64,000 nt of DNA from IMG/VR virus record IMGVR_UViG_3300032216_001476, positions 31,137-95,136 of that record, one strand, 5' to 3'. The notes beneath the pieces are model-generated. The model was not told where the DNA came from. It saw only the letters and a list, made by a program, of their open reading frames with translations, and searched no databases. Origin of the DNA: a virus (lineage: Duplodnaviria > Caudoviricetes). This document shows, one piece after another, positions 1 to 53,187 of the stretch (positions are counted from its first letter, which is position 1; each line of letters starts with the position of its first letter). Made by a program: the position numbers and the translations under genes.

Positions 1-7
1 AAACAAA

Positions 8-454
8 ATGAAAGACACAATGAAGAAGTCTATTAATTTAGATGGAGTTAAGTTGCTTATTAAAACTACCTATGCAGGTAGAAGAAGTGAAACACCCTTG
101 TTTAGTGTTTCATCATCGGGTTATTCTTTCCTTAATATAAGTTTTGCAAACAAGTATTTCAAAACTCATAAGTCCAAACTGTTTATTCAAGCAGTAAGTT
201 ATAAGAATATGTTTTATCTACTTATTAGTAAAACTAAGAAGCAAGGATATTACAGTCTTACTAACAATCCTAATGGTGGTTATGCTGCCAAAATCAAAGG
301 ATTATCTGTTACTTTTGGTAAAAAAGGTATCACCACAAGGTACACTGTACAAATGGTTGATACAACAGATAAGACTATTAAAGCATTTCAAATTAAAAAT
401 GCTGCTGAAGACTTGTTTGTGACAAAAGAAAAAACTGATTTTGAAACTGCTTAA
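8..454 (+). CDS. hypothetical basic early protein
   Basis: 148-aa ORF, A-rich leader, no recognised motif. Confidence 0.7.
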   Translation: MKDTMKKSINLDGVKLLIKTTYAGRRSETPLFSVSSSGYSFLNISFANKYFKTHKSKLFIQAVSYKNMFYLLISKTKKQGYYSLTNNPNGGYAAKIKGLSVTFGKKGITTRYTVQMVDTTDKTIKAFQIKNAAEDLFVTKEKTDFETA

Positions 455-464
455 AATTTAAAAA

Positions 465-626
465 ATGGATTTAAAGTTGAAAGAACGTAGAGAACGTGTT
501 ATTGCTCGTTTGAAAGAGCAACTTAAGAAAGGTGTAAAAACAAATAAAGATCTTACATTAGATCTCACACCTACAGATGTTGCAAGAATCAATAAGGAAA
601 TAGAAATTTTAAGTCAGAGAGTTTAA
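465..626 (+). CDS. small hypothetical protein (53 aa, not in ORF track)
   Basis: ATG 465 after AAAA; MDLKLKERRERVIARLKEQL...SQRV, TAA at 624-626. Confidence 0.65.
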   Translation: MDLKLKERRERVIARLKEQLKKGVKTNKDLTLDLTPTDVARINKEIEILSQRV

Positions 627-631
627 AATTA

Positions 632-779
632 TTACATTTGATGTTGAGAGCCATATTTGTATTAACCGACAAAAGGGATGGTATAACTTAGTAAACAGTA
701 TAATTAGTACTAGTTATACAGTTGAAAAGTATGAATTCCCCTAAGCAACTTAGAGAATATGTCCTCAACATAAATGTAA
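632..779 (+). ncRNA. putative structured RNA domain A (closed multi-branch)
   Basis: TTACATTT/AAATGTAA, ATGTTGAG/CTCAACAT and CATATT/AATATG outer stem; inner GTATAACT/AGTTATAC and CTAAG/CTTAG hairpins; intergenic. Confidence 0.55.
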
Positions 780-784
780 ATAAC

Positions 785-897
785 AGTACATTTGTAAATA
801 AAGAAAAGAAGTAGATAATACCACTACATTTCTCCCAATAGTCAATAAGTGAAGAACATTATAGACTATAGTTGTATCTGGTTTTTACATATGTACT
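785..897 (+). ncRNA. putative structured RNA domain B, directly 5' of tRNA
   Basis: AGTACAT-TGTAAA pairs with TTTACA-ATGTACT; inner GTAG/CTAC and ATAGTC/GACTAT. Confidence 0.5.
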
Positions 898-900
898 AAT

Positions 901-975
901 GGACCCTTAGCTCAGTTGGTTAGTAGCACCTGACTCATAATCAGGGGGTCGTAGGTTCAAATCCTACAGGGTCCA
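901..975 (+). tRNA. tRNA with CAU anticodon, most likely tRNA-Ile2 (lysidine type, reads AUA)
   Basis: GGACCCT/AGGGTCC acceptor, CCTGA-CTCATAA-TCAGG anticodon arm, GTAGG-TTCAAAT-CCTAC T arm; body resembles bacterial Ile2 rather than Met tRNAs; CCA not encoded. Confidence 0.9.
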
Positions 976-1021
976 CATTTTAAACTAACAATTAATTTTA
1001 AATTATATAAAAAAAAATAAA

Positions 1022-1429
1022 ATGAATATTAAAAAACTTTCTTTTATAAAAGAAAATGATATTTGGTATGCTGACCTTCCTGAATTTTTAGAAGCAGGTC
1101 TTGGTACAAAAGCTAATTTAATGATGGTAGATGGAGCAGATACATTTTTAGATATTTTATCTAAGAATGGAGATTCTATTACTTTAAATATTTCAGATGA
1201 AGTTTTTGATGGTTATCAAAGTAGTATGAAAAAAATTAAAAAAGGATTAAATGCTCAATTATTAGAACTTGTAGGTCATGCTAAAGTTGACTACGGTGCA
1301 TATTATAATGTTTTAGAACATAATAATCAATCATTTAATCATAAATTGTGGCTATGTCCTGTAACAGAATATGTATTTGGATATTATCCAGATAATATTT
1401 ATGTATCAATTATTAAACTACAGTCATAA
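1022..1429 (+). CDS. DUF6717-like phage protein
   Basis: WYADLP..MVDGADTFLD..WLCPVTEYVFG..P..IY pattern. Confidence 0.65.
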   Translation: MNIKKLSFIKENDIWYADLPEFLEAGLGTKANLMMVDGADTFLDILSKNGDSITLNISDEVFDGYQSSMKKIKKGLNAQLLELVGHAKVDYGAYYNVLEHNNQSFNHKLWLCPVTEYVFGYYPDNIYVSIIKLQS

Positions 1430-1443
1430 ACAAAAACACCATA

Positions 1444-1526
1444 ACAGTTTTTGGGGTAACTATACATCTTTATCAAGTGATAAAAAAACCTTAAAGTATA
1501 GTCGTTGTGTTGGTGACACAAACTGT
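1444..1526 (+). ncRNA. putative pseudoknotted RNA domain C
   Basis: ACAGTTT/AAACTGT closing stem; crossing helices TTGGGGT/ACCTTAA and ACTATAC/GTATAGT; hairpins TTTATCA/TGATAAA and TGTGT/ACACA. Confidence 0.55.
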
Positions 1527-1557
1527 AGTTTTTTTAAACAATATTAATTAAATAAAA

Positions 1558-1770
1558 ATGAGACATCCAAACCAAAGAAATGTTGTAAGTTTTATGATTG
1601 TAAATGGTAAAAAAGGAGATACATTTTACACTCATAAAAAAAACAAAGATGTAACCGCTATTGCTTCTTATTATGATAGAGAAGTTACCACTACAAGAGT
1701 TATTAATCTTGAAGGTAACTTTAATAAACCTATAGTTAAAACATTAACAAAAGTAATTATTAAAAAATAA
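1558..1770 (+). CDS. hypothetical protein
   Basis: 70-aa ORF with A-rich leader. Confidence 0.7.
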   Translation: MRHPNQRNVVSFMIVNGKKGDTFYTHKKNKDVTAIASYYDREVTTTRVINLEGNFNKPIVKTLTKVIIKK

Positions 1771-1779
1771 ACAACAATT

Positions 1780-2031
1780 ATGTACAGAGAACCAGTAACA
1801 GCAAGAGAAAGAGAAATTCCACAGGAAGTTATGCCAGAGTACAAAAGACCTAAACAAGAAGTTCTTAGTGATTACCCCATTACTATTAGATTTTTATCTA
1901 TAGGATGTATTGTTGAAGTGGGGTGTAAGAGTATTCCATTTACTAGTATAGTTGATGCTATGAGAGAGGTTAATGAATATGTAGAAAATCCTCATGAAGC
2001 TCAAGAGAAATGGAGAAGGATTTTGTCTTAA
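1780..2031 (+). CDS. hypothetical protein
   Basis: 83-aa ORF, tightly packed after previous gene. Confidence 0.75.
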   Translation: MYREPVTAREREIPQEVMPEYKRPKQEVLSDYPITIRFLSIGCIVEVGCKSIPFTSIVDAMREVNEYVENPHEAQEKWRRILS

Positions 2032-2040
2032 CAAAATATT

Positions 2041-2176
2041 AGTCAGGTGGCGGAAGGATAGGGGTTTCCCCTGTCGTGGTAGAAGCAATAGATGGTTATA
2101 GCACTATGGGTAAAAAACACAATGCGTGTGGTCACTATAATGACAGCCCTTGGAGGTTCAAACCCTCCCCTAACTA
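2041..2176 (+). ncRNA. expanded tRNA-like RNA (136 nt)
   Basis: AGTCAGG/CCTAACT acceptor (one mismatch), canonical T arm GGAGG-TTCAAAC-CCTCC, Leu-type D-arm halves TGGCGGAA..TGGTAGA split by an inserted hairpin, branched variable region. Confidence 0.7.
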
Positions 2177-2311
2177 CACGTTCTACTTAATCAATAGATA
2201 GTTCATCCCTGAATGATAAGAAATGGTGTGATAACCATATGGGTCAGTTCACCCTAAATGGAGCAATAAAGGGTACGGTTAACTGCCGTGAGATAATATC
2301 AACAAAAGTTT

Positions 2312-2442
2312 ATAAGAGAAGTGGTTGAAGCTGTTAATTAGCACACCACTGATAAAGGTGACTATACTGAACAAGGGTTTGTAGTAGGTATAGATAAAAT
2401 CAGGCTAATCAGAAATCCTGAAAGACCCACAGCTTCTCTTAT
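2312..2442 (+). ncRNA. putative structured RNA domain D
   Basis: 10-bp ATAAGAGAAG/CTTCTCTTAT closing stem; AGTGGT/ACCACT, CTATAC/GTATAG, TCAGG/CCTGA; possible GGGTTT/AGACCC pseudoknot. Confidence 0.55.
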
Positions 2443-2447
2443 TTACA

Positions 2448-2536
2448 TGCCATAGAGATTTTTAAATCTCCTACTTACTTACGATAAGGAAGGTTATGGT
2501 AGGTAACAGCATATAGTAGTGACGCTGTTAATTTTT
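2448..2536 (+). ncRNA. structured domain E plus terminator-like hairpin
   Basis: TGCCATA/TATGGTA enclosing GAGATT/AATCTC; then TAACAGC/GCTGTTA followed by ATTTTT. Confidence 0.45.
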
Positions 2537-2557
2537 AAATTAATAAATTATAATAAA

Positions 2558-2656
2558 ATGAAAAGTATAGTTTTTTTATTATCTTTCCTAATAGGAATTA
2601 TTAGTTTTATAGTAACGTATCCATTTATCTATTTATTTAAATTATTAAAAAGATAA
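2558..2656 (+). CDS. small membrane peptide (32 aa)
   Basis: MKSIVFLLSFLIGIISFIVTYPFIYLFKLLKR, single hydrophobic helix. Confidence 0.5.
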   Translation: MKSIVFLLSFLIGIISFIVTYPFIYLFKLLKR

Positions 2657-2665
2657 ATCAATTAA

Positions 2666-2751
2666 ACCTTGGTGGTGGAATTGGTAGACACGCAAGACTT
2701 AAAATCTTGTAACCAGAAATGGTTGTACGGGTTCGATTCCCGTCTAAGGTA
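2666..2751 (+). tRNA. tRNA-Leu(UAA)
   Basis: ACCTTGG/CTAAGGT acceptor, TGGTGGAATTGGTAGACACG D arm, CAAGA-CTTAAAA-TCTTG anticodon arm, long variable arm, ACGGG-TTCGATT-CCCGT. Confidence 0.95.
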
Positions 2752-2757
2752 CTAATG

Positions 2758-2792
2758 ATAACCTGGTATATAATTACCAGGTTATTTTTTTT
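2758..2792 (+). terminator. intrinsic terminator
   Basis: ATAACCTGGTA/TACCAGGTTAT stem plus T run after tRNA-Leu. Confidence 0.8.
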
Positions 2793-2807
2793 AACTAAAT
2801 TTATTTT

Positions 2808-3107
2808 ATGAAATTTTATCTACTTGATGGTGATAAAAAACCATACAATGTAACTTTAGAAGAAAGTTATAAATTATATGACAATCCTGAAATGAAAATT
2901 ACTAAACAGGAATATATTGGTAATATCTTAGTATCAACAGTATTTTTAGGAACTGATCACAGTTTTGGAGAATCAGAAATTCCTGTATTATGGGAAACTA
3001 TGGTATTTGGAGGACATTATAATGAATATCAAAGAAGATATACATCACATGAAGATGCACTAAAAGGTCATAATGAAATTATTAATATGATTAATCCAAG
3101 AAACTAA
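2808..3107 (+). CDS. conserved phage hypothetical protein
   Basis: VSTVFLG.DH.F..P.LWETMVFGG..YQRRY...AL.GH pattern. Confidence 0.75.
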   Translation: MKFYLLDGDKKPYNVTLEESYKLYDNPEMKITKQEYIGNILVSTVFLGTDHSFGESEIPVLWETMVFGGHYNEYQRRYTSHEDALKGHNEIINMINPRN

Positions 3108-3110
3108 CAT

Positions 3111-3353
3111 ATGACACCAAAAGAGAAAGCACTAGAACTATGGTGGACCTACTACTCTAGGATTGAACACACACTTTCTGAAGAGTATTCTTCTTATGAG
3201 AAAGACATTACAAAAAAGTTAGCTGTTATTGCAGTTGATGAGATTATTAACACTCTAAACTTTGATATTAGAGATTTAGATGTTAGAGGTAGTGTTTTAC
3301 TAGATCTAATCCAATATTGGAGAGATGTTAAACAAGAAATAGAAAAATTGTAA
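3111..3353 (+). CDS. hypothetical protein (MTPKEKA-type)
   Basis: 80-aa ORF, N-terminal MTPKEKALEL. Confidence 0.75.
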   Translation: MTPKEKALELWWTYYSRIEHTLSEEYSSYEKDITKKLAVIAVDEIINTLNFDIRDLDVRGSVLLDLIQYWRDVKQEIEKL

Positions 3354-20529: not shown

Positions 20530-20747
20530 GTACAGAAAAACAAATAAAAGCTCGTAAGTCTTACAAGTTTTATAAAAACGTATTTCAATTGGCTAATGAA
20601 CGTCAGCCTAAAGAATTACTGAAGTATATCCATACATATATGGAAAGTGGTAACAAACATGGTTCTGTATCTAATGCAAACTGGGCCATGGAATCTATTG
20701 ATCAAGTTTTAAAAGAAAATCATGTCAGTACAAACAGTATATGCTAG
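20526..20747 (+). CDS. hypothetical protein
   Basis: 73-aa ORF, overlapping start/stop. Confidence 0.6.
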   Translation: MSTEKQIKARKSYKFYKNVFQLANERQPKELLKYIHTYMESGNKHGSVSNANWAMESIDQVLKENHVSTNSIC

Positions 20748-20967
20748 AAAATGTGACCACTGTTCTAAAGGAATGGATTATGGTTATACAGTAAACGAAG
20801 GTGAAGAATACTATTGTTCAAATGAGTGTCTTCATAAACACTATACTGAAGATGAATGGGCGGATATGCATGACAATGGAGATGGTGATTCATATTGGAC
20901 AGAGTGGGATGATCCCATTGACATTCAGTATATATTAGTCGGTAATGAAGTAAAAGAAATAGGATAA
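20722..20967 (+). CDS. small Zn-finger acidic protein
   Basis: CDHC..YYCSNEC..YWTEW. Confidence 0.7.
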   Translation: MSVQTVYARKCDHCSKGMDYGYTVNEGEEYYCSNECLHKHYTEDEWADMHDNGDGDSYWTEWDDPIDIQYILVGNEVKEIG

Positions 20968-26177: not shown

Positions 26178-26918
26178 ATGCCTAAAAGAGTTTTAGAAGT
26201 TTCAGAAAATGAAGTATTAGATAATACAAGACATTCTATTATATCAAGTTTTATTGCAAATGCAAAAACTATTATAAACAATAAAAATTTTATTGTTTAT
26301 AATACTTATTATAAAGTTACAGAAAACTATGATACAGTAGAAGTAGCTTATAACTTAGGATCTTATGGTTTTGTAAACAATCTATTTTTAATTTGTACTG
26401 TTTCAAATATAAAATCTTATAAATTTAAAGCTATAATCAAATGTGATAATTTGACATTTGGTAGTAGTTCAAAAGTATTTAGGAAGAACTTGACAGTAAA
26501 TGATAGTTTAGATATGATTGGAACATTACTATTAAATGTTCCAAATGAAGTGGGTGCGTTAAAAAACTTTAACTATGCACTTGATATTAAAAAAATTACT
26601 AAAAAAGAAATTTCTGAAATAGTTGGTCATCTTTACTTTCATGAAGAAATTCTAACATCTTCTCAAATTAGTTTACTAAAAAAAGAATATAATTTGAGTT
26701 CAAGAATTAATACTTATTTAGATTTCTATAATAAGATTAGTATTGTTTTGGAATTATCACATCCAAATTCTTATATGAATAATCATTATATACTTTCTAA
26801 CTTCTTTTTAAATAAGATTCTTGATTCTTATCCTAATGCAGAAACGGTTAGTGTAGAACCACAAGAAATAGCAGTTCAAAAAGAAGAAGAAGTACTTTTT
26901 GGTGTAAATTTTTTATAA
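26178..26918 (+). CDS. hypothetical protein
   Basis: 246-aa N/I/K-rich ORF. Confidence 0.65.
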   Translation: MPKRVLEVSENEVLDNTRHSIISSFIANAKTIINNKNFIVYNTYYKVTENYDTVEVAYNLGSYGFVNNLFLICTVSNIKSYKFKAIIKCDNLTFGSSSKVFRKNLTVNDSLDMIGTLLLNVPNEVGALKNFNYALDIKKITKKEISEIVGHLYFHEEILTSSQISLLKKEYNLSSRINTYLDFYNKISIVLELSHPNSYMNNHYILSNFFLNKILDSYPNAETVSVEPQEIAVQKEEEVLFGVNFL

Positions 26919-26924
26919 GAAATT

Positions 26925-27272
26925 ATGAGTAAAAGGGAGTTGAGTAATGATACTATTGGAGAACTTTTCATGAATGTATTACAACATATGAAATGTATTG
27001 AAATACGTATTGACTTTGCTAAAAATCTTACATCACAAAAACAAAAATACGCTCTCGATTTATCACTTAAAAAAATTAAATCGGCTATTGATAATCTTTG
27101 TGATTTATTAGGTGATAGCAGTATGGTTTTGAAAGTTAAAAAAGAACTTGATAAATCAGATATGGTATATGTAATGCTTCTCACTGAAAAGTTCTCTAAT
27201 CTCACCCCAGATGAACTAGAGGAAATAGATGAGATACTAGAAGATTATATTAATAAAAAACATAAAACATGA
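26925..27272 (+). CDS. hypothetical helical protein
   Basis: 115-aa ORF. Confidence 0.7.
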   Translation: MSKRELSNDTIGELFMNVLQHMKCIEIRIDFAKNLTSQKQKYALDLSLKKIKSAIDNLCDLLGDSSMVLKVKKELDKSDMVYVMLLTEKFSNLTPDELEEIDEILEDYINKKHKT

Positions 27273-28033
27273 TAATTGGTGTATCTGGTTATTCAGGTTC
27301 TGGTAAAGACACTCTTGGTAATATCATTCTAAATCTCACTGCCAAAGAAAGATATGGATATTTAGAAAACACTTGGGAAATTAAAAAATGGGCAGGTAAA
27401 TTAAAAACTATAGCTAGTTTACTTACAGGTATACCTGAATTCAAGTTTGAAGATCAGGAGTTTAAAAAAACTTATCTTCCTGAAGAATGGAACTACTATG
27501 CTATATCTCTTATAGATAATGGTAAATTACTTGTACAAAAAGGTAGATATACTACCAAAGAAGAAGCATATGCTTACATTCCAATGCTTAAAGAAATCTA
27601 CGGTGAATTTAACATAGAATATGTAGTAGGTATGCGACAAATGACTGTAAGACAATTTCTACAAGAATTGGGTACTGACACACTTCGTGATAATTTTCAT
27701 CCCAATACTTGGGTTAATGCTCTTATGTCTGATTATAAAGTAATTGGAGACACATTGCTAGAAGGTGAAGTCAGAAAAGTAAGAGAAGAAGATCTGATCT
27801 ATCCTAACTGGGTAATTACAGACACTAGATTTGTTAATGAAGCAGAAGCTATTAAAAAAGCAGGTGGTATTGTTATACGTATAGACAGACCAGGATTTAC
27901 TCCAATAAATGCACATCCTTCTGAAACATCTTTAGATGATTGGGATTTTGATTATAAAATAGCTAATGATATGGATATTAGTAATTTATCCAAAATCGTT
28001 GGTGATATTTTAAGAAAAGAAAAACTTCTTTGA
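27269..28033 (+). CDS. deoxynucleoside monophosphate kinase (T4 gp1-like)
   Basis: IIGVSGYSGSGKDT, TVRQFLQELGTD, ITDTRFVNE, HPSE. Confidence 0.88.
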   Translation: MIIGVSGYSGSGKDTLGNIILNLTAKERYGYLENTWEIKKWAGKLKTIASLLTGIPEFKFEDQEFKKTYLPEEWNYYAISLIDNGKLLVQKGRYTTKEEAYAYIPMLKEIYGEFNIEYVVGMRQMTVRQFLQELGTDTLRDNFHPNTWVNALMSDYKVIGDTLLEGEVRKVREEDLIYPNWVITDTRFVNEAEAIKKAGGIVIRIDRPGFTPINAHPSETSLDDWDFDYKIANDMDISNLSKIVGDILRKEKLL

Positions 28034-28115
28034 TGAATGAAAATTATACAAGATTTTACTAACTTGTATACAGATTTTTTTAACCCGAATACTATTCGTT
28101 ATATATTTTAATACT

Positions 28116-28811
28116 ATGAATATTTTACACTTATCTGACACTCATGGTTTTCATGGTACATTTCCAAATGAGAGATTTGAAAGTATTGATGTAGTAGTAC
28201 ATTCTGGTGATTGTTCTAATTGGATGGATCCATATAAAAATGAATCTGAAGTTAGAAATTTTATTGAATGGTATAAACAAGTACCTGTAAAACATAAGAT
28301 TTATGTTGCAGGTAATCATGACACTAGTATTGAGAAAGGATTAGTAACTCCAGGAGACTTTTCACAATCTAATATTATCTATTTAGAAAACGCTGCTACT
28401 ATAATAGATGGTATTAAGTTTTGGGGTTCTCCTCATACACCTACATTTGGACCTTGGGCTTTTATGAAAGCTCGTGAAAAGATTAATAGAGTTTGGGATA
28501 CCATACCAGAAGATACTAATGTATTAATTGTACATGGTCCTCCTAAAGGTGTAAGAGACCTTAGTTTTGATAGATATGGAGAACTTGAAATGTGTGGATG
28601 TTCTGCTCTAATGAAAAAATGTGTCAAACTTAAAGACTCACTTAAATTAGTAGCATTTGGACATATTCATAACATGGATGGAATAGATACTAATCAAGGA
28701 GTATCTTATTATTCTAACATGTCTAATACTGTTTTCTCTAATGCTGCTTGTGTATATGATGGTAAATTTAATTTAGGACTCACCTCACATGGTAATATAA
28801 TATCAATATGA
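28116..28811 (+). CDS. calcineurin-like metallophosphoesterase
   Basis: SDTH, HSGD, GNHD, HGPP, FGHIH. Confidence 0.9.
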   Translation: MNILHLSDTHGFHGTFPNERFESIDVVVHSGDCSNWMDPYKNESEVRNFIEWYKQVPVKHKIYVAGNHDTSIEKGLVTPGDFSQSNIIYLENAATIIDGIKFWGSPHTPTFGPWAFMKAREKINRVWDTIPEDTNVLIVHGPPKGVRDLSFDRYGELEMCGCSALMKKCVKLKDSLKLVAFGHIHNMDGIDTNQGVSYYSNMSNTVFSNAACVYDGKFNLGLTSHGNIISI

Positions 28812-36167: not shown

Positions 36168-39100
36168 TTATGATTTACATTGATTTTCTAAATAAAATTC
36201 ATTTGGTAGTTCTGATCTTACAAACTCATCTGTTCTTACAGACTTCAATATATTTTTAAAATCAGGTTCAATAAAGTTTTCTTTTGGTTCACCTATTCTA
36301 TCTGTAACAATATAAAGTTTTTCTCTAGCACGTGACACTGAAGTATACATGGATTGAGCATATGATTTAGGAGTTAAAACATAATCACCATTATTACCTT
36401 GAAAAACATGTTTTCTTATATTTTCTTCATTTACAAATACATGATTATATGTTTGTCCTTGAACCTTATGTGAATTAACTATATATCCATGTTCAACATT
36501 CATAAACTCAGGATCACTTTTGAAAGAATAATAATTTTTAAATGGTATAAATACATTCTCATTTCTACCATCTTTTATTAAAAATCCTCTAGTCATCCTA
36601 CCATTTACAGAACTTTCAGCGACATTGCTATCATTAAACTGCAACATGAATTTATAATCAGGTAAAAAGAATGATACAATATTTTCTCCAGTATTAACTG
36701 TTAAATTTTTTCCTGGAACTTCCAATTTAAAATCTTTTCCTACATTAAATATTTTATTTTTAGGAATAGCTGATTGTACTACTAATCTTTGATTACCTGA
36801 TATCTCTATATTCTCTCCTGTATTTACATCTTTTGTAGCAAAAACAGGTATTTTAGATATTATTATATCAGATTCTACAACAAATTCTCCAGAAATAAAC
36901 TTACTACCTAAAAAGTCTTTACGTACTTTAAAACTTTTTTCAATTGTGTTTTTATGATTTTCATTGTTGTAATGAATGTAAACTGCGTTCCTTGGATTTA
37001 AAGGATCTCTTTTTAAAGTATTAACATATCTTTCAAGCATCTGATTATCATTACTACTAAATAAAATATTAGCAGATGTTTTTGTATGATCAGCTTTCAA
37101 GAAAGATTGTGGAGAAAGTTGAGTATTATAAGAGTTAATATTTTTTTCTAGATTTTCATTATAGTAATCAATACCTCTCCTATACAAAATACCCAAATCT
37201 GTAATATCTTGATTCTTAGTTCTTTCTACTTTAATTAAACCTACACTCTTATCTTTTTCTTTCATTAAATTAATTGCCCAACCATCTTTATCATTTATTT
37301 CACCTACAGGTGGTATTTGTGCATAATCTCCCATAAAAAGAAACAAAGGAGATTCTTTACCAAGAAGACCTTTTCTTTCTTGTATTCTTAATTTTAAAGC
37401 TTCAATTTCTCTTGTACCAATCATTGAAGATTCATCAATAATAACTATATCATCTTTAAAAATTTTAGGAAGTAGTCTTTCGTCTAATTCACCAGTTTTT
37501 TTATCTTTAAACTCATCAATATCAATTAATACAAATTCTTCATTACCATATTTATCCATTTTAGGTCTTATACCAAGATATGATGCAAAAGTTGCTGCAG
37601 ATTTATTACCTGCTCTTTTTAATTCATTTTTTGCAGTGTGTGATGGTGCACAGTAACCAATAGATGCATTCTTTAATTTTTGTATTTTTGATGTTGCATT
37701 ACCAATACATGCTGTTTTACCAGTACCACCAGGACCATACAACAAGAAAGAATTCGTAAACAAATCTTGAGTTGTCACAGTTTTAGAAAGATGTTCTACA
37801 ACAGCATCAATTGCAATTATTTGTTGTTCATTAGCTTTAAATTGACCATTAGGTGTAAGTAAAGTATAAGGATCTCCTTTTTTATTACCACTGTCTTCAC
37901 TTGGAGGTTTAACACTAGGTTCATTAGGATCACCTGATAAATCATTATCATCACTATGATCTTGAATATCTGGTTCTGTAATAACTCTTACAATGTTATC
38001 AATACTATTTTTAAGAACAGAATTATTTATCAAATCAATACCTAATGTTTTTGCAAGTGATTTAAACAGATTAGCTAACAATTCTTTAAATCTTTCAAAT
38101 ACACTTTGATTTTTAATTTCATCATATAATGTATTATTCATTTTCATTTGAAATGCTCTATCAGTCATCATCATACTTACAAACTCATCCATATTTGTTA
38201 ATCCATAATACATAGACTTTTCATAAGATGAAAGAGAGGCATCATTGTCTTTTAATTTTTCAATGATTTCTAGAAGTTTAGGTCCCTCATTAGGATTACT
38301 TAAAATCTTAGTTCTAACATCATTAAACATATTCTCTATGTTCTTAATAAAAATTAACTGATTTTTATTAAGTGTAACCTTGTCAGTTCTATATCTCTTT
38401 AAAAGATCCTGTGTTAGTTTATGCATTAATTCATGCATAATAACAGTTTCAATATTATCAGTTTCAGATAACTTAGGATTATCTTTTCTTGCTAAAACAT
38501 GATTTATTTTTATTGAACCATTTATATATGCACCTGGATGATTTATCTTATCAGTTAATTCTATAACTGTATTCTTAATATCAACTTGTGCATCTGCAAG
38601 TAGTTTAATAAAGTTTTTATAAAAATTGTTACTTGTAGTTTTGTATAAACTATTTAAAACACTACTTAAAGTGTTTTTACCAAATACATTAAATATTCTA
38701 TTTAAAACTATATCGTTTTCAAATGAGTATTGACTAGTTGTTACACCTACACCAAATATACCAGCTAATCTATCATCAGTGGGTACGGGAGCATCCAGTT
38801 GATCTAAATACAATTCTGATTCATCATCTGCATTTTCAACAGAAGACTCTGGTTCTGTAGGTACAAAATCATCTTGTATTTCTAGATTTTCTTTTAGACT
38901 ACTTACATCATCTCCTGGATTAATATATTGACTTGCTACACTATATAATTCTGGATCTTTATTATTTACCAAGTCTGCTAACAAATCAGCATGAGAATAA
39001 TATCCACCTTCTATCACTGTACCATCAAGATTTTCAAGACGAGATGGTTTGTAATATAAAAGTTTCTTTCCATCAAGATTACCAGATATTATTTGTTTTA

Positions 39101-42100
39101 ATATCCATTCTCTTTGTTTTGGATATAAGTCAGTATAATGTTTTCCTAATAACCAGTTATAATAATAACTTAAAGCTTGTTCGTCATTATTAACTTTTAT
39201 TAACTTATCATAGTTTGCATTAGGTCTTACAGAACCAACAAATGGATTACCAAAATGCTGATCTGTATTGTTTTTTCTCATTACATTTACACCACTATCA
39301 GAATATACAGGTAAACTTTTAACACTAGAATAAGAACTAAAATCTTCAACAGTTGTCAACTTAGTTGCCACTTTATTTCTTAACGAATCTGCTAATGCTA
39401 TAATAGCTTTCTTATCACCATTATCATCTTTCCATTTCATAATATCTCCTGTTCTTCCAGATATTATAGCATTTCTTTCATTAACTACATATTTATTATT
39501 TCTATAGTTAACTACTACAGCTCTTCCTTGTTTTACAGCTGCATTTGCAAATATTTTATTTCTATCTCTAGATGCAGTTTTAAATACTTCTTCGTTTTTT
39601 TTATTAAAGATTTTATCTCCAATAATTGTATATGTTTGTTTAGTTTTACCAACAGGCGTATAGTCTATAGTAATAGCACCTTCCTTTTGAGCTATTGTAT
39701 TAGACTCAGTTGGGGGTGTTTGTTTATTAACTAAATATTGTTCACCTAATTCTACTGCTTCTTTTAAAGTATCTATGTATTCTCCAATAATACCATCTTC
39801 AGAATCTTCTACATCATACTGATTATTAATAAGCATAATATTTACTCCCTTCTCTTTCAGTATATTAGTTCTGTCATTTAAATCTTTTTTTTCATCAGAC
39901 TCTGATAATTCAGGAGAAGGTGGTGTACCTATACCAAAAATAAAACCTGCATCCATTGCTTCAGTACCCTCTGGTGCATCAAAATCATAATCATCATAAT
40001 TTATTTCATCCCCACTACTTAGTTCACCTTCATAACCATTTTCCATATCTTGAATATCTGGACCATCACCAGGTAGTTCAGGTACAGTACCATTTATAAA
40101 GTATTGTGATAGATCTTCTGGTTGATTATTTTTTATAGCATTTCTTTGAGGTACAGTTAAGTTATTAAATATAAGAGATACTACATTGGGATCTCCCATT
40201 GAATATTCTGTAAAACCACTTTTAGTAGTACCTAATGTATTTATTCTTTTATAGTTACCAACATCAGAGTTTGATTTATCTCTCTCGTATAAAAATACTA
40301 TACCAGATTCTGAATCTGTAAACGATAGATAATCAGCAAACTTTTTACCATATCCTTCTGTTTTAATTCTATCTACCAAAATAGCTTCATGTCTAGGGTC
40401 ATTTCTATCTATTGTAAAAGCTTCAAAGTTTTTTAAACTATTTACAATATTATATGGCAATGAGGTAGCCATATCAGGGTTGTTTTGTATAAATTGTTTA
40501 TAGAAGTTATCCTTGTTTTCATATAACATAGTAGGAAGAACATTTATACCTTTTATAAAATCTTCATCTGATATAAAATATTCTATAGGAATAAACTTAC
40601 CAAAACTTGTACTTGTCTGATTAGCTCCAGTTATAAAAGAATATAAAGCTAGATCTTTTGCTATTTGTATTAACTCATCATTGTTACTGAATATAAGACT
40701 CAAAAATCCTTTGTTGTTTTCAAGTTCATCAATATCACCAAAAGGATTATTATAAAGTACTTGACTAGTACCACCTTCTGTAGTGGATATATTAGTGTTC
40801 AATCTTCTAATAAAATAGTTCTCTGCTAACTCTGGATATTTAGTTTTAGCATTTACTATTCTTTGAGCTAATGAAGGACTTTCTTTTGTTTCTTGAAGAA
40901 GTCTTCTTCTTTCTTCAGTGACATCATCAGTTATATCTAAACTTGGACTTGAATATAGATAAGATCTAATTGCTTTAAACAGTCTACTATTTATTTCTAT
41001 AAATCTTTGTTTACCAACACTTCTTTTGTCTATCTTTCTGCCGTTAAAGATTAAACTAGAAATATTAAAATATAAAGAACTAAAGTGTAATGGAAACAAT
41101 TGTCTGTATAAATCTTCACCTAGCATCAAAGATCTTTCAATACTATGACCTATCTCTCCTTTAGGACTAGAAATATAGGTTCTACCTACAGCTTCATCAT
41201 ACATCACTTCACCCGCAAGCTGTTCGAGATTTAAAAACTTCTTATTTTGATTTAAGTTTCCTAACTTATTTAAGTTACTCATTAATTCAAAAACACTACT
41301 ACCAATACCCTTGGTGTATATATAAGAAGCTCCAATTATACCTGTAAGCTCACCACCTAAATCATTAAATCTTACAAACAAATCAAGTAGGTCAATTTGT
41401 TTTTCAGCAAACTCATTTAACCTCTTTCTTAATTTAGCTTTTTCAATAAGATCTAAAGATGGGTCATCTACAAGTTTTTGTATATTTGGTATTTCTATAC
41501 TCTCTTTTAAAAGATCTAAAAGATTATTTTGACCAAATAATGTAGGAGTTCTTTTAAGTGCATTTAAAGGATCTTTAAGTTCAAGAACTCTATCTTCAGA
41601 CATCATTTTATAATACTTATCTTTTAGTTCTTCAATTATAACATTTCTTGAATCAGCTACATAAGTACTAAGACTATCTCTTGATACTTGGGTTTTAGAA
41701 ACCCACTCTTCTATTATAGGTTGTTTAAAAAATCTAGTTGCAAATTTTATACTTAATATACTATTACTATCATCAGAAAGAGCTATCATCGCAGTAATAG
41801 CTGGCATAACTTCTTCTGCCCAGTTAAATCTATAAAGATTTTTATTTTTAGCGTTATCCACTGATTCAGAAAGTAATATTGAGTTGTTATCAATCTTTGT
41901 TCTCACTGAATCTTCTAGATTACCTTTTTTATCTTTTTGCTTTACAGTTGTTTCACCTGCTTCTGTTATCTTAGTAAGAGACATCACTTTATTGTTTTCA
42001 TCTAAGACATCAATAAAGTCTTGTACCACCTCCTCGTTTTCATCCACTCTAGCAATTACTATTTGTTTATCTTGATTATCTGCAAGAAAAGATCCTAATG

Positions 42101-45100
42101 ATGCAAATATTCCCACACCTGCTTTACCACTTCTGTTATCATTAAAGATTTTAATTTGTTCTTCAGGATCCATAGGAAGATAACTATCATCAGAGTCATA
42201 TAAACCTAATTTCTCTAGTTCTGCCACTTCATTTTTAACATCATCAAAATCAATAGATTTTGTAATCTTTTCAAATGCTTTTGGATGTGTTAATACTTCC
42301 CAATGAATATCTCTATATAACTGATGTAATTGATCATCTGATAAATCTGATAAACTAGTCCAGTCACCTTTGTACTTATCTAAATTATAAGATACAGTTT
42401 CAACACCTATTATATTTTCAGTTTTAAGCTTTCTTTTATTTTCTTTAAGTTTAGCTATTTCTTTTTTAGCTTTTTCTTTATTTAAAAGTTGCTGTTGCTG
42501 TAATATTAAATACTGTTCGTTATTAATAGACTTCAGATTTTCATAAAGAGCTTCAATAACATTGTCAATCTTATCAATAATTTTTTGCTTACGAGATTTT
42601 TCTTTCTCGCTTATATTCCATTTTAACTTACTTATAATTGCATTCTTATCTTCTTTTAATTTCTTGATTTCAGTTTGATCAGCACTACTTAAGTAATTTT
42701 TAAACAATTCAGTGTTTGTATTTTCTAATTGATTCTTGATGTTTAATATACTCTTGTCAATTTCAATAAGAGATTTATTAATATCAGATGAGTATTTAAA
42801 CTTCATTGTACTTAAGTATGCATAAAGTTTATCTACGTCAAAATCAGAACCCATTTGTTTTGTTATACCATTGGGTACAACTACTGTATTCTCCATATAA
42901 GAAGGAAGAAATCCTACCACCTCAATAGGTAGCATAGAAGACAAACCTTGGTTAGGAATACGTGAAGCTACTAGTTGGAACATCTCTTTACTAAATTTAC
43001 TAGTATCAAGCATCTTCCTATTAGTTTTAGGATCGGTAATCACAAACTTTTCTAAGTCTATTAAATTACCTTCATCATCTGTAATAAATTGACTAACAAT
43101 AACTTGTGCAGCTTCTATTTTTCCAGCTGTAATATTACCATTTGAATCAATACTATCTTGTGTCTTTCTTAAATATTCCAAACCTTTTTTACTATCATAT
43201 CCAGGAAGCCATATTATTTCATTCTTGGTTTTTTTAGTTAAGTCAGAAAATTCAAATTTATGATTAACACCTGTCACCTGTACTAATGAGGTACCAGGAT
43301 TCTTTAACTGCACTACTTTATTTACCAATGAGTTTATAAGACCTTCAAACTTCTCACCCCTTTGCATCATATACAAAGGAATAATAAACTCTCCATTCTT
43401 TCCTAACTTAATAGACTCAATATCATTAATAGAAAAGTTCCTTTCAATCGCCTCTTCTTTTAGAAGTATCTCTAATGCTTTCTTATTTTTAAAAGTAAAG
43501 TTTCCTTTTTTATCTACAGTTACTCCTAGTTTTGCAAGAAGTTCATTTTTAGAATTCTCAAAAAGATTGATACGTACATTCTCTTTTAGATTTTTTAAAT
43601 CTTTACCAGATAGTTGTTTATTAGAAATATAAAAATCACTTACATCAAGTAAACCTTCAAACAATACACGATTAGCTTGTGATATATTTCTAATCTCTTC
43701 TTTTTGTCCAGGTATTTCTTGCTGTGTACGTAGACCTTCTCTACTTAAAGTTTGTTTACTATTGTCAAAAGCTTTATCATTAGGTCTAACAAATTTACCT
43801 TCTTTATCAAATAACTTTATTACTTCACCAGGTTGTCCAGTTTTTTTAGCTGTTTTAAAATTACCTGATCGTATTTCTTTTTCATGAAAATATTTAGCTA
43901 AATCTTCTAAAGGTGAATTAGCAATTACTTCAGGAATTAAAGGATAAGTAGAAGACTTTACATAGTCTATCCTATTAAAGTTATTATTTACATCAAAATC
44001 ATTTGTATGAACAGGTTTAGTTGGTTGTAGTACAACTTCTTTTTCTCTTGGAGATAAAGTTATTTGTCCATCTTTAGAAGCTAGAATTCTATCAGTAATA
44101 CTTTGCCATATATCTAAAGGTATTCTTCCTTCACTCATTAATCTATCTATATGCTCTTGTAATGTTATATATTCCTGAGCATCTGTAGATTCAATACCAT
44201 TAAACAATTCTGTATCTAATATAATATCTTCTATAGTTACTGCATAATATGAACTCCTATCTACAACATCACCTTTCTCATCATACCATGTCCAGTTACC
44301 CTGTGATCCAGGTGCAATAAACATAGCAGCACGTTTAGAGAATTCATCCATTGTAGATTTAACTAATGTAATCTTCTCTTTGAGTGTTAATTGAGTAATG
44401 TTTTTACCTTTAACTATAGGATTTTCTTTATAAAACAAAGCAGGATCAGCACCAAGTATTTGCATTGCAGTCACCTGACTTCTTATATAATTAAATTTAA
44501 ATTCAGCAACACCGTATATAAGTTTCTGTATATTAGACAAATTAAGAATCTCATCTTGTGCTAAGTATTTAGCACTAAATGCTTTATCTAAAACTAAATT
44601 TATTTTACCATCTTCACCTTGAACTTTTGTTACTAAATTTAACCTTATTAATTTCTTTATTGTTGAAGTGATTTGTTTTTTGAAGACATCAGTAATAAGA
44701 CTTTTTATATAAGTCTTATCTTCATCTGATGGCATCTCACCATTAAACATTCTATCTCTTATTTCTTCCATCCTAGCACCATCTTTATCAAGACTGCTTT
44801 TATTTAGTATTGGAAATAAATAAAAATATTGATAAGCTTTATCAAAATTTGCTTGAATTTTCTGAGTACTATCTGATTTTAATTTTTTAGAATAACTAAC
44901 AATACGATTTATTTCAGATTCAGCTAAGTTGTATAATTCATTTTTCAAGCTGTTCTGAATTTCATAGTAGTCATCTAAATTGGTAGTATCAACAGGAGAT
45001 GTAACAAACTGAATATCTTTTGAAGATCTGTTTTGTTTAGCATCATTAAGTTTATACTTAGTTAAATTAATAATAGGTACGGTGGTCTTATCAGATAAAG

Positions 45101-46956: not shown

Positions 46957-49900
46957 TTACTTACATATTTTTTTAACGTCTTTCAAATTATTTGTACGAA
47001 TGCTAAAAGGAGGTTCACTATCATCTATATCACCAATACTTGATGCAGACTCTCCAAAATTGATATCTAAATCTAGCAAACCTGTAGAAGCATCTGTTTT
47101 GGTTTGTTCTTCAGATATACCCATAACACTATTCACATAAGATGGAATATCACCTTGAACATAAGTAACTCTACCATTATAATCTAATTTAACATTTGAT
47201 AAATCAAAACCAGGTAACAATATCTTGTTTTGATCTTTTTGAATTTTAGCTTTATTAGAATCTGCAATTTTACTCATATCTTCTTTACTTGTAATAGTGG
47301 AAAATATATTTAAGAAACCATTTTTGCCAGTTGTATAATGACTCAAAGCATCTGCTGTAGATACAATTTTAACTTCTATTGGCAAGTTATCAATTTTTTC
47401 AGTCTTAACCTTATCCATCAACTCTAAATTTTTAGAGAGTTCTTTAATCAACTCATTAGAGAATCCCATATTCTTTAGAATTGGTTCAATGGTTTGATAA
47501 TGAGTTTTAGTTTCATTATTTAAAGCTTTGGCTAAATCATGAGTGTATACCATAAGCTTTAACATATTGGGATCACCGCCATATTTAGAAGACAAATCAT
47601 CAACAATAGCTTCTACTACTTTTAAATGATGTTCAACATACCAATCTTTGTGATCTGGTCTTTCTTTAAAACCAGTGTTGTACATTTGTTTAAGATCAGT
47701 TATTTGAACTAAGTTTATAGGTTTATCAAGAGGAGCTTTGTTAATCTGACTATCTATTATATCTTTTACCTGTGCTATATATCTAAATTTCCCTGTTAAG
47801 AAATTAGTAATAAGATCATCGTTGATTCCTAACTTATTAAGATTACCATTACGAAATGAATTTACAAATCCTTTTACAGTTTTCAATCTATCACTTTCAT
47901 CTTCTATATTCATATAATCTTTTAAAAGAAGAGACAGATCTTGTAAGACATTTTTTGTAACAATTAAGTCATTTTGTACATTGGATTTTTTAGTACCAGC
48001 TTCTTGTGCATCTAATTGTATTTTAAATTCAGAAGTAAGATATTTAGTAACTATCTTCATTTCAGACATAGACATGTCTCTTAACTTTTTACCAGCTTTT
48101 AATTCTTTATAAAGTTCTTTTGCTATTTCGATATCATACTTACGATCAATTTCATCTATTATCTTAGGTGCTAATATTGCAGCATTATATTGTTCTTTAG
48201 TTATCTTTGAAAGTGCTGGATCATTTCTTAAAGCATCAGTAGATATATTTATTTGTTTTTCAGCATAAGCATAAGTATTGTCTATATTACTTTTAAAAGT
48301 TAAAGTGGCTATAGTATTATTATCACCTTCATAAAAACCCTGTATTAAAACATATGGAGCTTTTTGTTTTATTTCTTCTTTTCTTTTGTTTTCTATATTA
48401 GTTTTAGTATTTGTAGAAACAGGAGCTGTAGGTGCTGCAGGAGCAGGGGGAGGATTAGTTGTAGTAGTTTTTTGTTCTAAATCTTTTAAGTTATTATCAT
48501 TAGGAGTATAACTAAAGTTTACAACAGGATTAGCAAAATGTACATATGGACTATCAGGATTAGATGGATCAACAGGACGACCTTTTTCTATATTAGTTTC
48601 AAGTATATTCATAATATACTCGTTATAGGTCATTGGTTTTGATTTTACAACTTGTTTTTTATTATTATCATATGAAAGAAATTGCATTTTTACATTTGAA
48701 TTAATACCATTTGCTGTATCTGAACTTGCCTTTACTGTATAATAAAGACTTTTTAATTTTTCCTGTAATTGTTTAGATTTATCACCAAATCTAAATTCTT
48801 TTAAACTTTCTATATATAATATATCTTTAGGTTTTGTTTTATCCTTTACTACCCAAACTACTAATTCTCCTGTAGGAGTAATGTTCATTTGACCTGTTCC
48901 TTCTTTTAATAAAGGATTATAATCTTTTTTGTTAGATCTAAAAGTTACATAATCATTTATATAATTTTTTAAAATATTGAAGTCAATATTAAATTTTTCA
49001 TCATACTCATTACCGTATGCTGCATAAATTGCTTTTACAACATTTTTATATTTTTCTAATTCAGCACCAGTCTTACGAGTTTCTGTTTTATTATTTAGTT
49101 CATGAAAAGCAATCCACCCTTCTATAATTAAATTAGTATGTTGTTCTGCTAATTTAGGAACAGAAGCAAAACTAAATAATTGTTTTTCAGTGGGAGTGTC
49201 AATAAAGAATACAGGAAAACCTTCTATATTTTTAAGATTTTTGTTTCCAATAAAATTATCTGGATCTAAAGTTTCATTAGTACCCACTCTAATTTTTCCA
49301 CCTTTAATAATTCCTAGTTTAGTTTTAGGATGTAATACTTGAGATAATTTATTTAAATTTCGTTTTCCTCCTTCACTCTCATCTAGTCTTAGTTTACCTA
49401 AAGATTTTCTATTAACGTTAGCATATAATTCAAATTTTGTATTAGAATTATGTCCTTTAAAAATAGTTTCACGTAAGTCTTTAACAAACCTTATTTGATT
49501 TTCTAAGTTATTAATTTGCTCACCAGAAGGACCTTTGGTAAATTCTACAACATTCATTGTATTACCATCAGGATATCTAGCAGTTAACCAAGACATAGTA
49601 GGAAGATGACCTAATAATACTTTTTCTCCATTAACAATTGTTTCTATTTTTATAGGAAACTCATCTTTTACATTATCATGCACTTTGTTATCAACTGTAA
49701 AAAAATTACTTCTTTTACGAGTTTTTGTATCAGTTGGATCTAAAACATTTTCTTCTTCAAAATCATCAACATCATAATTAGCTGATATTATTAATTTAGT
49801 TCCAATGTTTATTGCTTTAGTTCCTAATACTAATGGATAATTTGGAGATGCTGTTGTTCTTTTTCTATCAACTCTATTAGCACTAACAACAGTCATTTCA

Positions 49901-52900: not shown

Positions 52901-53187
52901 TCCGTATTTTCCCCTGGAATAGTTCTATACTCTTTAAATAATTCAGGTCTTCTAAATGATTCTGACTTTGAAAGTTTGTTTTCAAAAAATTGTTGAGCAT
53001 CTAAGAAACTAGAACTAGTAACAGGAGGAGGTACTGTATTAGTTTTTTGAGGCGTACCACCACCTCCAACATTACCATCAGTAGTGGGTGCAGGTATACC
53101 ACCTGTATCAGGAGTTTGATTATTTTCAACATCAATATTCTCTACAGTACCAAGATTATTATCTACAGTATTAAAATTTTCAAGCAT
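46957..53187 (-). CDS. large virion cargo/ejection protein with C-terminal HD domain
   Basis: 2076 aa; Gly/Ala-rich hydrophobic N-terminal region, coiled coils, acidic linkers, HH..THDLAK..ADALSH. Confidence 0.78.
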   Translation of the reverse strand: MLENFNTVDNNLGTVENIDVENNQTPDTGGIPAPTTDGNVGGGGTPQKTNTVPPPVTSSSFLDAQQFFENKLSKSESFRRPELFKEYRTIPGENTEGRFLDAKFGFSPILDNEDFYAQRQSGINKLGIGLLKLPTLVATKVGSGVGFLGALVNPVNWVDENGYFSAVADNSISGFFDTWENSIKNNWLPTFQEAEDRDQGFFKSLGDANFWAEDFVDGAAFMASAWIPGMALSKLGLAKGAITGLSRLGRVGAETLGASIEGAESVANYFQNAAKYAKTIDKFNAWALATSSESMFEAKGVKDVLTESLKDSNYTEEEKKKIIGSNTKDTFLMNAVLLGATNLFELPLVNKILGKADGAIGNIASMTRFGEEAAVKEASSKLGKILSNKYATIAKDVISGTFREGFVEENGQLAIQKYHEELGAAGKIADVLDLNNYANVAKKTYQQTRDVFGLGDKPNIEAEKSIGLGAILGGGQTAIANRIQSKRDKLTTEQAITMYNQAQQSWLKFGNPYLTETIVSKDENGEEVKKEKIVFDSNNKPVIDQKKLDSIISSVSMNSGIMVASDKQENLSIRNLLRDNAFADFVIAHIQIGQEDKLKTKLDALSTATPEELAKFGFAPDETSADQINRYRSLADTIIKQNKIINNDILYDGTPEDQARKIKLTELAAQQAVYRNLRVDENRMLNEVKNQILTPENSSLSDGIVDQLNMLKLRIQDMDKYIDDLKTNKSSKKTSLAVAEKNRQELQEEYDNLLKTNELSVKDLKQDSKGFYQYEKNERNDPTLLTPLVKRMYYLGSLENTVKKLGKEWASFADFKNGKKNFLANFDETITQVINNKIETDNSDRDITDIDEEPQQGSENFEDLVDTSEFDVEPQDFDFLGNAIPKLDDYLKNLYDLEKSKNNISKPFEEWKTSEDANPYIKTYNDKYDKKESLNTKKDTTEPAELPEDFVDDEEGGEELPNDFFGTTFLDSIKLGPYVIHKGDLIDDKLVELITDSNIIIAGEPYLHNEVLQMIDIFKGRNIKSKVTPAPAPTNQNDPDEFENGEIQNVQDTRNSVINTILQKIIDAFDQTRGIIFGGSDKVVSGIKVNNRSDEYEMTVVSANRVDRKRTTASPNYPLVLGTKAINIGTKLIISANYDVDDFEEENVLDPTDTKTRKRSNFFTVDNKVHDNVKDEFPIKIETIVNGEKVLLGHLPTMSWLTARYPDGNTMNVVEFTKGPSGEQINNLENQIRFVKDLRETIFKGHNSNTKFELYANVNRKSLGKLRLDESEGGKRNLNKLSQVLHPKTKLGIIKGGKIRVGTNETLDPDNFIGNKNLKNIEGFPVFFIDTPTEKQLFSFASVPKLAEQHTNLIIEGWIAFHELNNKTETRKTGAELEKYKNVVKAIYAAYGNEYDEKFNIDFNILKNYINDYVTFRSNKKDYNPLLKEGTGQMNITPTGELVVWVVKDKTKPKDILYIESLKEFRFGDKSKQLQEKLKSLYYTVKASSDTANGINSNVKMQFLSYDNNKKQVVKSKPMTYNEYIMNILETNIEKGRPVDPSNPDSPYVHFANPVVNFSYTPNDNNLKDLEQKTTTTNPPPAPAAPTAPVSTNTKTNIENKRKEEIKQKAPYVLIQGFYEGDNNTIATLTFKSNIDNTYAYAEKQINISTDALRNDPALSKITKEQYNAAILAPKIIDEIDRKYDIEIAKELYKELKAGKKLRDMSMSEMKIVTKYLTSEFKIQLDAQEAGTKKSNVQNDLIVTKNVLQDLSLLLKDYMNIEDESDRLKTVKGFVNSFRNGNLNKLGINDDLITNFLTGKFRYIAQVKDIIDSQINKAPLDKPINLVQITDLKQMYNTGFKERPDHKDWYVEHHLKVVEAIVDDLSSKYGGDPNMLKLMVYTHDLAKALNNETKTHYQTIEPILKNMGFSNELIKELSKNLELMDKVKTEKIDNLPIEVKIVSTADALSHYTTGKNGFLNIFSTITSKEDMSKIADSNKAKIQKDQNKILLPGFDLSNVKLDYNGRVTYVQGDIPSYVNSVMGISEEQTKTDASTGLLDLDINFGESASSIGDIDDSEPPFSIRTNNLKDVKKICK

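Follow-up and report, generated by a model that had tools for sequence, protein, structure and literature searches.

A putative cluster of structured small RNAs among the tRNA genes of an uncultured lake phage

We describe here a group of non-coding units that alternate with tRNA genes at positions 632-2536 of a 64,000-nucleotide (nt) stretch of phage DNA, referred to below as the window (bases 31137-95136 of the 95-kb IMG/VR virus record IMGVR_UViG_3300032216_001476). The source is an uncultured phage from a lake, with a G+C content of 29% and an estimated completeness of 77%. The stretch is probably a small-RNA cluster of the type found in the tRNA regions of phages T4 and T5, in which one transcript would carry two tRNAs, a chassis RNA derived from a leucine tRNA, and a set of folded modules. 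An interpretation made from the letters alone (the sequence-only reading) had divided the non-coding DNA into seven units, each closed by its own stem. Discrete closed units are seen at 632-779, 785-897, 2041-2176, 2312-2442 and 2448-2530; the claim finds no support for 1444-1526. Of 2177-2310, an opening part of 85 nt is conserved and shows compensatory changes, and the tail, 2263-2310, is likewise unsupported.

Results

The stretches 627-900, 1430-1557 and 2032-2557 hold no open reading frame (ORF) of 60 amino acids (aa) or more, which bears out the claim that this DNA is non-coding. The proposed comparison with Rfam, run on 400-3000 at E<=10, named tRNA as the sole matching family; the whole window, a second cluster upstream and a relative's array likewise gave tRNA alone, and a collection of 50,697 phage records, searched by blastn with the region and with a relative's array, returned tRNA matches only. 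When the folding energy of each unit was compared with that of 200 dinucleotide shuffles, three of the seven units stood out, namely 632-779 (z -5.3; none of the 200 shuffles folded as well), 2312-2442 (z -3.3) and 785-897 (z -2.5), whereas 2448-2530 (z -1.7), 2041-2176 (z -0.6), 1444-1526 (z -0.4) and 2177-2310 (z -0.1) did not, so that the expectation of better-than-shuffled folding held for the first three and failed for the other four. True tRNAs themselves seldom stand out in such tests. Energy is for this reason a poor test, and relatives were sought for comparison. Through the 83-aa gene at 1780-2031 we found the loci L011, L013, L014 and L015, together with 50 more distant ones; L011 is a 3-kb contig that is 92-98% identical, and L013 and L014 were found at 65% protein identity. 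The most useful relative, L209, was added through a later motif scan. The borders originally drawn for 2041-2176, 2312-2442 and 2448-2530 coincide with those of conserved blocks in L011, L013 and L209, where the blocks occupy different places than in the window.

The clearest case is the seventh unit (2448-2530, plus strand), for which 17 distinct copies were collected. The ends of its first 55 nt pair and enclose two hairpins, forming a three-way junction, and this is followed by a fourth hairpin, whose 13-nt loop is conserved. A 21-nt core of this unit is present in 11 viral contigs plus L013; a looser gapped pattern matched 88 places, of which 7 (5 distinct) passed a hidden Markov model (HMM) filter, the others being chance matches. 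Thirteen of the 23 pairs change on both sides in the 17-sequence alignment, with at least one such pair in each of the four helices, and 90.5% of cells are paired, as against 40-50% when the partners are slid by 1-3 columns. None of 500 shuffles reached the covariation score. Judged by this alignment, the structure is under clear selection and constitutes a newly defined conserved motif; no Rfam family matches it. The call for covariation in homologues is thus answered strongly here and by compensatory changes in 2041-2176 and 2177-2262; for 632-779 and 785-897, each with one near-identical relative, the substitutions are no more than suggestive. The alignment also contains 7 G-U-type cells against 2 A-C-type cells, an excess that favours folding of the plus strand and that, with A-U/G-U exchanges in 632-779, gives mild support to the argument that G-U pairs favour RNA. 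In 7 of 12 motif copies a tRNA or chassis RNA begins within about 12 nt downstream; a T run and a gene follow in 4 of the 12, the window's copy included, and the L013 copy has other sequence downstream.

The fourth unit (2041-2176, plus strand, 136 nt) has the body of a leucine tRNA with a rebuilt middle. Its 7-bp acceptor stem contains one C-A mismatch (6 of 7 pairs formed) and is followed by a discriminator A; its D arm, of the leucine type, is interrupted in the loop by 21 inserted nt that fold into an 8-bp hairpin; and its T arm is canonical (5 bp, 7-nt loop). A bulged 6-bp stem with a 7-nt loop occupies the anticodon position, and the variable region is a 42-nt branched junction. By the measure used here for a canonical tRNA (a cloverleaf that scores 29 bits or more and has a 7-nt loop on a 5-bp anticodon stem; the true tRNAs score 58 and 67) this is not one, as ARAGORN makes no call and Rfam RF00005 gives no match at E<=10, and the RNA is probably unable to decode. 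Orthologues in L011 and L209, both with 7 of 7 acceptor pairs, are about 93% identical to it. The differences lie in the scaffold, with compensatory substitutions in both the T stem and the D-loop hairpin, and the middle is almost invariant, which points to a folded RNA with a middle that matters.

An alternative is that 2041-2176 functions as an oversized tRNA-Ile for AUA codons and that the other units are unrelated to it. The arm at the anticodon position does present a loop of 7 nt, in which U occupies position 2, UAU the centre and A the next place, and is invariant in L011 and L209; the 29% G+C content of the genome is in keeping with this, and a normal tRNA-Ile(UAU) sits at this spot in a relative's array. 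However, the stem below the loop is bulged and 6 bp long, the variable region is a 42-nt branched structure, the D loop carries its 21-nt hairpin, neither ARAGORN nor Rfam reports a tRNA even at E<=10, and most members of the family to which the RNA belongs lack an anticodon loop. We regard such a tRNA-Ile as highly unlikely.

That family is large and, as far as its distribution indicates, viral. L013 alone contains, in 2.2 kb, seven elements with the same ends as 2041-2176 and with middles that differ by 30-150 nt. The shared 21-nt 3' end occurs at at least 174 sites in at least 120 IMG/VR contigs, and among the matches listed there are 145 distinct chassis elements of 54-322 nt, nearly all with the same acceptor strand at their start and most with a leucine-type D arm. 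ARAGORN accepts 29 of the 145 as tRNAs, several with two- or four-letter 'anticodons', and the Rfam tRNA model aligns some members with anticodon loops of 2 or 12 nt; most have no anticodon loop at all. The middles are very diverse (the largest similarity cluster has four members), compensatory changes are seen within small clusters, and in a looser chassis search the T stems covary. The window's RNA shares with the family its acceptor sequence (the 5' strand is identical and the 3' strand differs by one base), discriminator A, leucine-type D arm, T arm and non-decoding middle. It differs in its acceptor mismatch, in a diverged T stem in which both partners of two pairs differ from the stem usual in the family (the stem of L209 has diverged likewise), and in the D-loop hairpin, which is confined to a subgroup (L011, L013, L067 and L209). 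The window phage has a single chassis copy, whereas relatives have up to seven.

In 185,579 species genomes of bacteria and archaea the 21-mer turns up in only 18 contigs, many of them short, and on this ground the chassis family is phage-borne. About half of the 18 are assigned to Chitinophagia, Flavobacterium, Saprospiria or other Bacteroidota, and judging from these assignments the hosts are probably freshwater Bacteroidota. The family is absent, at blastn sensitivity, from the isolated phages in the 50,697-record collection. The chassis family was not found in Rfam, and our literature searches gave no description of either this family or the 2448-2530 motif; one survey lists generic tRNA-like candidates in IMG/VR (PMC10690425).

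Further elements were observed around chassis RNAs in other loci and in this genome. A module with a GTGTTGT/ACAACAC stem lies beside chassis RNAs in 19 loci, and a conserved hairpin lies directly upstream of the 2448-2530 motif in 11; both are absent from the window, and the loci with these two module families comprise L013, L206, L209, L211 and 15 others. In L011 an extra 86-nt hairpin and a 52-aa membrane micro-ORF are inserted ahead of the chassis RNA (2652-2909); the ends of the hairpin resemble the chassis acceptor stem, and it has no T arm. The minus strand of L209 at about 2400-2440 resembles the 3' end of a transfer-messenger RNA (tmRNA), with a T arm, an acceptor strand and an encoded CCA; ARAGORN makes no tmRNA call there. 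The minus strand of the window phage's genome carries, at 20659-20762 (L004 2659-2762), a 104-nt class II tRNA-like gene with a variable arm of about 33 nt, which scores 40 bits with the Rfam tRNA model and receives no ARAGORN call.

Two further plus-strand modules follow the chassis RNA. The core of the fifth unit (2177-2262) begins at the base after it; the unit's opening 85 nt are conserved in L015 and also in L096, which likewise has them directly behind a chassis RNA, and six predicted pairs have changed on both sides in the alignment of the three. The local hairpins of the tail (2263-2310) diverge from both relatives. The sixth unit (2312-2442) is a 131-nt multi-stem RNA with a 10-11 bp closing stem and has full-length relatives with the same borders in L209 (92% identity) and L013 (84%), in which the few substitutions mostly have no effect on the predicted stems; an exact-pattern scan for it across viral contigs gave no match. 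L209 also contains a paralogue that shares this closing stem but not the interior, so that constant ends around a variable middle recur outside the tRNA chassis.

The order of the modules varies between phages. L209 has homologues of 2041-2176, 2312-2442 and 2448-2530 in the same order as the window with other modules in between, and in L013 the homologue of 2448-2530 lies upstream of the chassis array. The same modules remain 84-100% identical between phages with different flanking genes, and several of the records that share them are estimated to be 14-35% complete at 30-102 kb, which makes them phages much larger than the window's. On this comparative evidence the RNA modules are exchanged between different phages.

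Short motifs recur as well. The 10-nt motif GGTNACTATA has plus-strand copies at 1455-1464, 2130-2139 and 2357-2366, once each in the units 1444-1526, 2041-2176 and 2312-2442; in two units it runs into a CTATAC/GTATAG stem. These three copies fall within 912 nt, where 0.59 would be expected in the whole 64-kb window. The hexamer TAGTAG (mostly as AUAGUAG) occurs in the loops of unrelated modules, at 2363-2369 and 2495-2501 in the window and also in the L013 and L209 arrays; 6.7 kb of arrays contain 13 plus-strand occurrences, against 3 on the same strand for its complement.

Such traffic in blocks raises the question of whether the structures act as DNA, whether as hairpin promoters for a virion RNA polymerase (the alternative raised by the sequence-only reading), as replication or recombination sites, or as mobile cassettes with inverted repeats. 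Besides the movement of modules as blocks, the clustering of GGTNACTATA is in keeping with this, as are the chassis family and the L209 paralogue of 2312-2442, which keep their ends and vary their interiors as recombination at the ends would have them do. Against it stand the preponderance of G-U-type over A-C-type cells in 2448-2530 and the two substitutions of 632-779, which are wobble-neutral on the plus strand only. In addition, one unit has the top half of a tRNA cloverleaf with a canonical T loop, motif copies stand directly ahead of tRNA 5' ends, and multi-helix folds of 80-150 nt, one of them covarying in four helices, are a poor fit to short promoter hairpins: those of the N4 type have a 5-7 bp stem and a 3-nt loop, although no search was aimed at repeated short hairpins. 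A role at the DNA level is very unlikely in our estimation.

The three units nearest the start of the window, all on the plus strand, have fewer relatives. The first (632-779) is a 148-nt multi-stem RNA candidate with a long, irregular closing stem and a minimum free energy of -39 kcal/mol, compared with -22 for shuffles. It is 98.6% identical in L011, and both substitutions exchange A-U and G-U in predicted stems. A 6S-like identity was considered for it and rejected, as no Rfam 6S model matches. The second (785-897), a 113-nt RNA candidate with a 13-bp closing stem, ends 3 nt 5' of tRNA-Met; its three substitutions relative to L011 all fall at unpaired positions of the predicted structure. 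As support for structure these substitution patterns are suggestive only. Neither unit was found in the whole records of five relatives, leaving the near-identical L011 as their sole relative. The third (1444-1526) contains one copy of the 10-nt motif and is 97.6% identical in L011, a near-identity that is its sole support; its counterpart there lies about 100 nt after tRNA-Met, because the gene at 1022-1429 is missing from that contig.

Several points weigh against our interpretation of the stretch as a small-RNA cluster. The structures of 632-779 and 785-897 are argued from folding energy, given their single near-identical relative, and 2312-2442 has one pair changed on both sides in three sequences. 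As closed structured units, 1444-1526 and 2263-2310 are not supported. The window's chassis RNA, with its C-A acceptor mismatch and a D stem weaker than those of L011 and L209, could be a decaying copy. Finally, the chassis neighbourhoods have no protein family in common: the largest cluster is found at 16 of 138 loci, and the clusters near chassis RNAs are DUF932, terminase and homing endonucleases.

Some of these points would suit a different explanation, in which the stretch is evolutionary debris combined with mRNA signals, 2041-2176 being a decaying tRNA gene and the other hairpins spacers, stabilisers or attenuators. The acceptor- and D-stem mismatches of the window's copy fit this, as do the third, fourth and fifth units, which fold no better than shuffles, the appearance and disappearance of modules between close relatives, and the terminator-like form that the last hairpin of the 2448-2530 motif takes where a T run follows it (4 of 12 copies). 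Decay, however, would hardly leave the middle of 2041-2176 almost invariant in three phages with its stems compensated, nor preserve covariation in four helices and conserved loops in 2448-2530. Modules held at 84-100% identity between differing flanking genes, and intact tRNA top halves across at least 120 contigs of the chassis family, likewise contradict it. We therefore consider debris unlikely and retain the small-RNA cluster as the better account.

The surroundings are consistent with a cluster transcribed as one unit. Over the first 32 kb of the window the genes run rightward, with replication genes (helicases, primase and a family B polymerase) next, and the RNA units sit in a gene-poor stretch within a series of small rightward genes. 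Two true tRNAs, both on the plus strand, were found by ARAGORN and Rfam, and no others: tRNA-Met (CAU) at 901-976 (Rfam tRNA, 66.7 bits) and tRNA-Leu (UAA) at 2666-2752 (58.2 bits). RNA units adjoin the tRNAs at distances of 3-6 nt, and every array element and flanking gene is on the plus strand. Directly after tRNA-Leu lies an intrinsic terminator (2757-2796, plus strand; a 12-bp stem followed by a T run), which is the sole terminator-like site on the plus strand within 1-3200 and probably ends the transcription unit. With this as the only strong plus-strand terminator, the genes, tRNAs and non-coding units most simply form one transcription unit. The proposal of a polycistronic array processed with the tRNAs fits this anatomy of abutting same-strand units, a terminator and a tRNA-shaped unit, and it fits further with the seven motif copies that stand directly 5' of tRNA or tRNA-like genes and with the precedents of T4 and T5.

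The array also contains a plus-strand micro-ORF (2558-2656) that encodes a 32-aa hydrophobic peptide with no Pfam match; comparable micro-ORFs break up the arrays of L011 and L211 and the T5 tRNA region. The gene at 1022-1429, which is missing at the same spot in L011 (97% identical there), encodes a 135-aa DUF6717 protein. Its nearest relatives (about 70% identity) are in bacterial chromosomes or in contigs with bacterial-type gene neighbourhoods, so that it was probably acquired from a host; as a search bait it led to bacterial chromosomes only and to no phage relatives. The 83-aa gene at 1780-2031 belongs to a small phage-only family, and the predicted fold of its product (predicted local distance difference test, pLDDT, 74) has no match in the PDB.

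Elsewhere in the genome, a second and larger non-coding cluster (genome 26600-28140; L004 8600-10140) lies about 3-4.5 kb ahead of the window start and opens the rightward gene block, with several units closed by stems of 13-17 bp. The remainder of the window is occupied by giant leftward ORFs of up to 3595 aa. On the minus strand these include 36168-46955 (3595 aa) and 46957-53187 (2076 aa), and three further large ORFs of the leftward block (838, 938 and 1265 aa) have no Pfam match.

Discussion

Our model proposes that a single rightward early transcript would carry the small genes, tRNA-Met, tRNA-Leu, the chassis RNA 2041-2176 and, as independent modules, 632-779, 785-897, 2177-2262, 2312-2442 and 2448-2530, and would end at 2757-2796. 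Host RNase P would cut the 5' end of each tRNA-shaped body, and processing at the 3' side after the discriminator base would be followed by CCA addition, a step that we propose because no CCA is encoded. As the modules abut the tRNA-shaped bodies, the same cuts would also free them as discrete, stable small RNAs. The expression, the processing sites and the stability of these RNAs are all inferred within this scheme.

Self-cleavage offers another way to cut the transcript, and the sequence-only reading had listed ribozymes among its suggestions. The units are indeed compact multi-stem folds with conserved loops, and one or more could in principle be a new self-cleaving ribozyme. No known self-cleaving family is found by Rfam in 400-3000 at E<=10, nor in the upstream cluster (26600-28140) at E<=1, and the unit borders are already explained by processing of the tRNA type, which leaves this suggestion extremely improbable and processing by tRNA enzymes as our preferred account.

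As to what the RNAs might do, our guess is that, once released, they bind host or phage proteins early in infection. A more ambitious version, which we hold tentatively and think rather doubtful, is that the cluster is an exchangeable library of small RNAs excised by host tRNA enzymes, in which each middle or module neutralises a different host factor, for example a defence nuclease that attacks tRNA. Such a library would account for a chassis that stays constant, for cargo that is hypervariable and for the way unrelated phages exchange parts like cassettes. Defences that attack the top half of tRNA exist (PMC12851939), and a decoy role is conceivable. Should these RNAs prove to act against defences or in host takeover, they would form the RNA equivalent of the many small early proteins of phages. 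Regulation of the phage's own genes by antisense pairing was considered and rejected, as the complementarity of each unit to the phage genome is no longer than in shuffles.

Bodies of tRNA that carry other RNAs have parallels outside phages. Engineered tRNA scaffolds and the tRNA-microRNA (TMER) genes of murine gammaherpesvirus 68 (MHV68) use a tRNA body to process or stabilise an unrelated RNA joined to it; the former are man-made and the latter come from a eukaryotic virus, and neither has evolutionary relevance to the window cluster. YrlA RNAs, non-coding Y RNAs of which some are found in phages, have a tRNA-like module as well as a long stem in which the two ends pair (PMC4201824). In YrlA the ends form the Ro-binding stem, whereas in the window's chassis RNA they form the acceptor stem. 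A Y RNA identity was rejected for want of an Rfam match and of a Ro/Rsr (TROVE) gene in the 77%-complete genome, in which genes for TROVE, CCA-adding enzyme and RtcB were all sought and not found (positive controls worked for the TROVE search).

The closest counterparts are the small stable RNAs of T4 and T5, among which rnaC and rnaD of T4 and RNA1 and RNA2 of T5 are believed to be co-transcribed and processed with the tRNAs. Like them, the window units lie within or abut a phage tRNA cluster on the same strand. In the T4 record (GenBank AF158101) rnaC (species 1, 139 nt) and rnaD (species 2, 119 nt) carry the annotation of small stable RNAs; they lie where the tRNA cluster ends, immediately next to tRNA-Arg. 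T4 rnaC folds far better than its shuffles (z -4.6), and at its end an acceptor-like stem closes a canonical T arm. These RNAs have no sequence similarity to the window units, and T4 has two of them, whereas the window phage has about six here and a second cluster upstream. We know of no chassis with exchangeable middles in T4.

The second counterpart is T5, whose record (GenBank AY543070) annotates eight stable RNAs among the tRNA genes (RNA1, RNA2, RNA3, RNAI, RNAIII, RNAIV, RNA2H and RNAX), with RNA1, RNA2 and RNA3 called tRNA-like and RNA1 and RNA2 marked 'with unknown functions'. There, too, small RNAs of about 70-170 nt (one is 719 nt) are found among tRNA genes, micro-ORFs for membrane peptides and homing endonucleases. 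T5 RNA1 (144 nt) is built like 2041-2176: besides its acceptor stem and T arm it has a D arm of the leucine type, and its middle is enlarged and branched. T5 RNA2 carries a near-identical T arm. On the other hand, the acceptor-stem sequences differ, blastn against the 50,697 phage records gave tRNA matches alone, with none in T4 or T5, and the host of the window phage is probably one of the freshwater Bacteroidota. The T5 RNAs, moreover, are stable by the annotation of their record, whereas the window units are known from sequence.

Given that no shared sequence is detectable, we take the window cluster to work like the stable RNAs of T4 and T5 rather than to be related to them by descent. Our comparison shows that clusters of this kind are common in uncultured lake phages and are built from exchangeable modules. 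The window and its relatives provide the comparative material with which to follow them: constant and variable parts, module borders and a newly defined motif, set beside the tRNA-region RNAs of T4 and T5.

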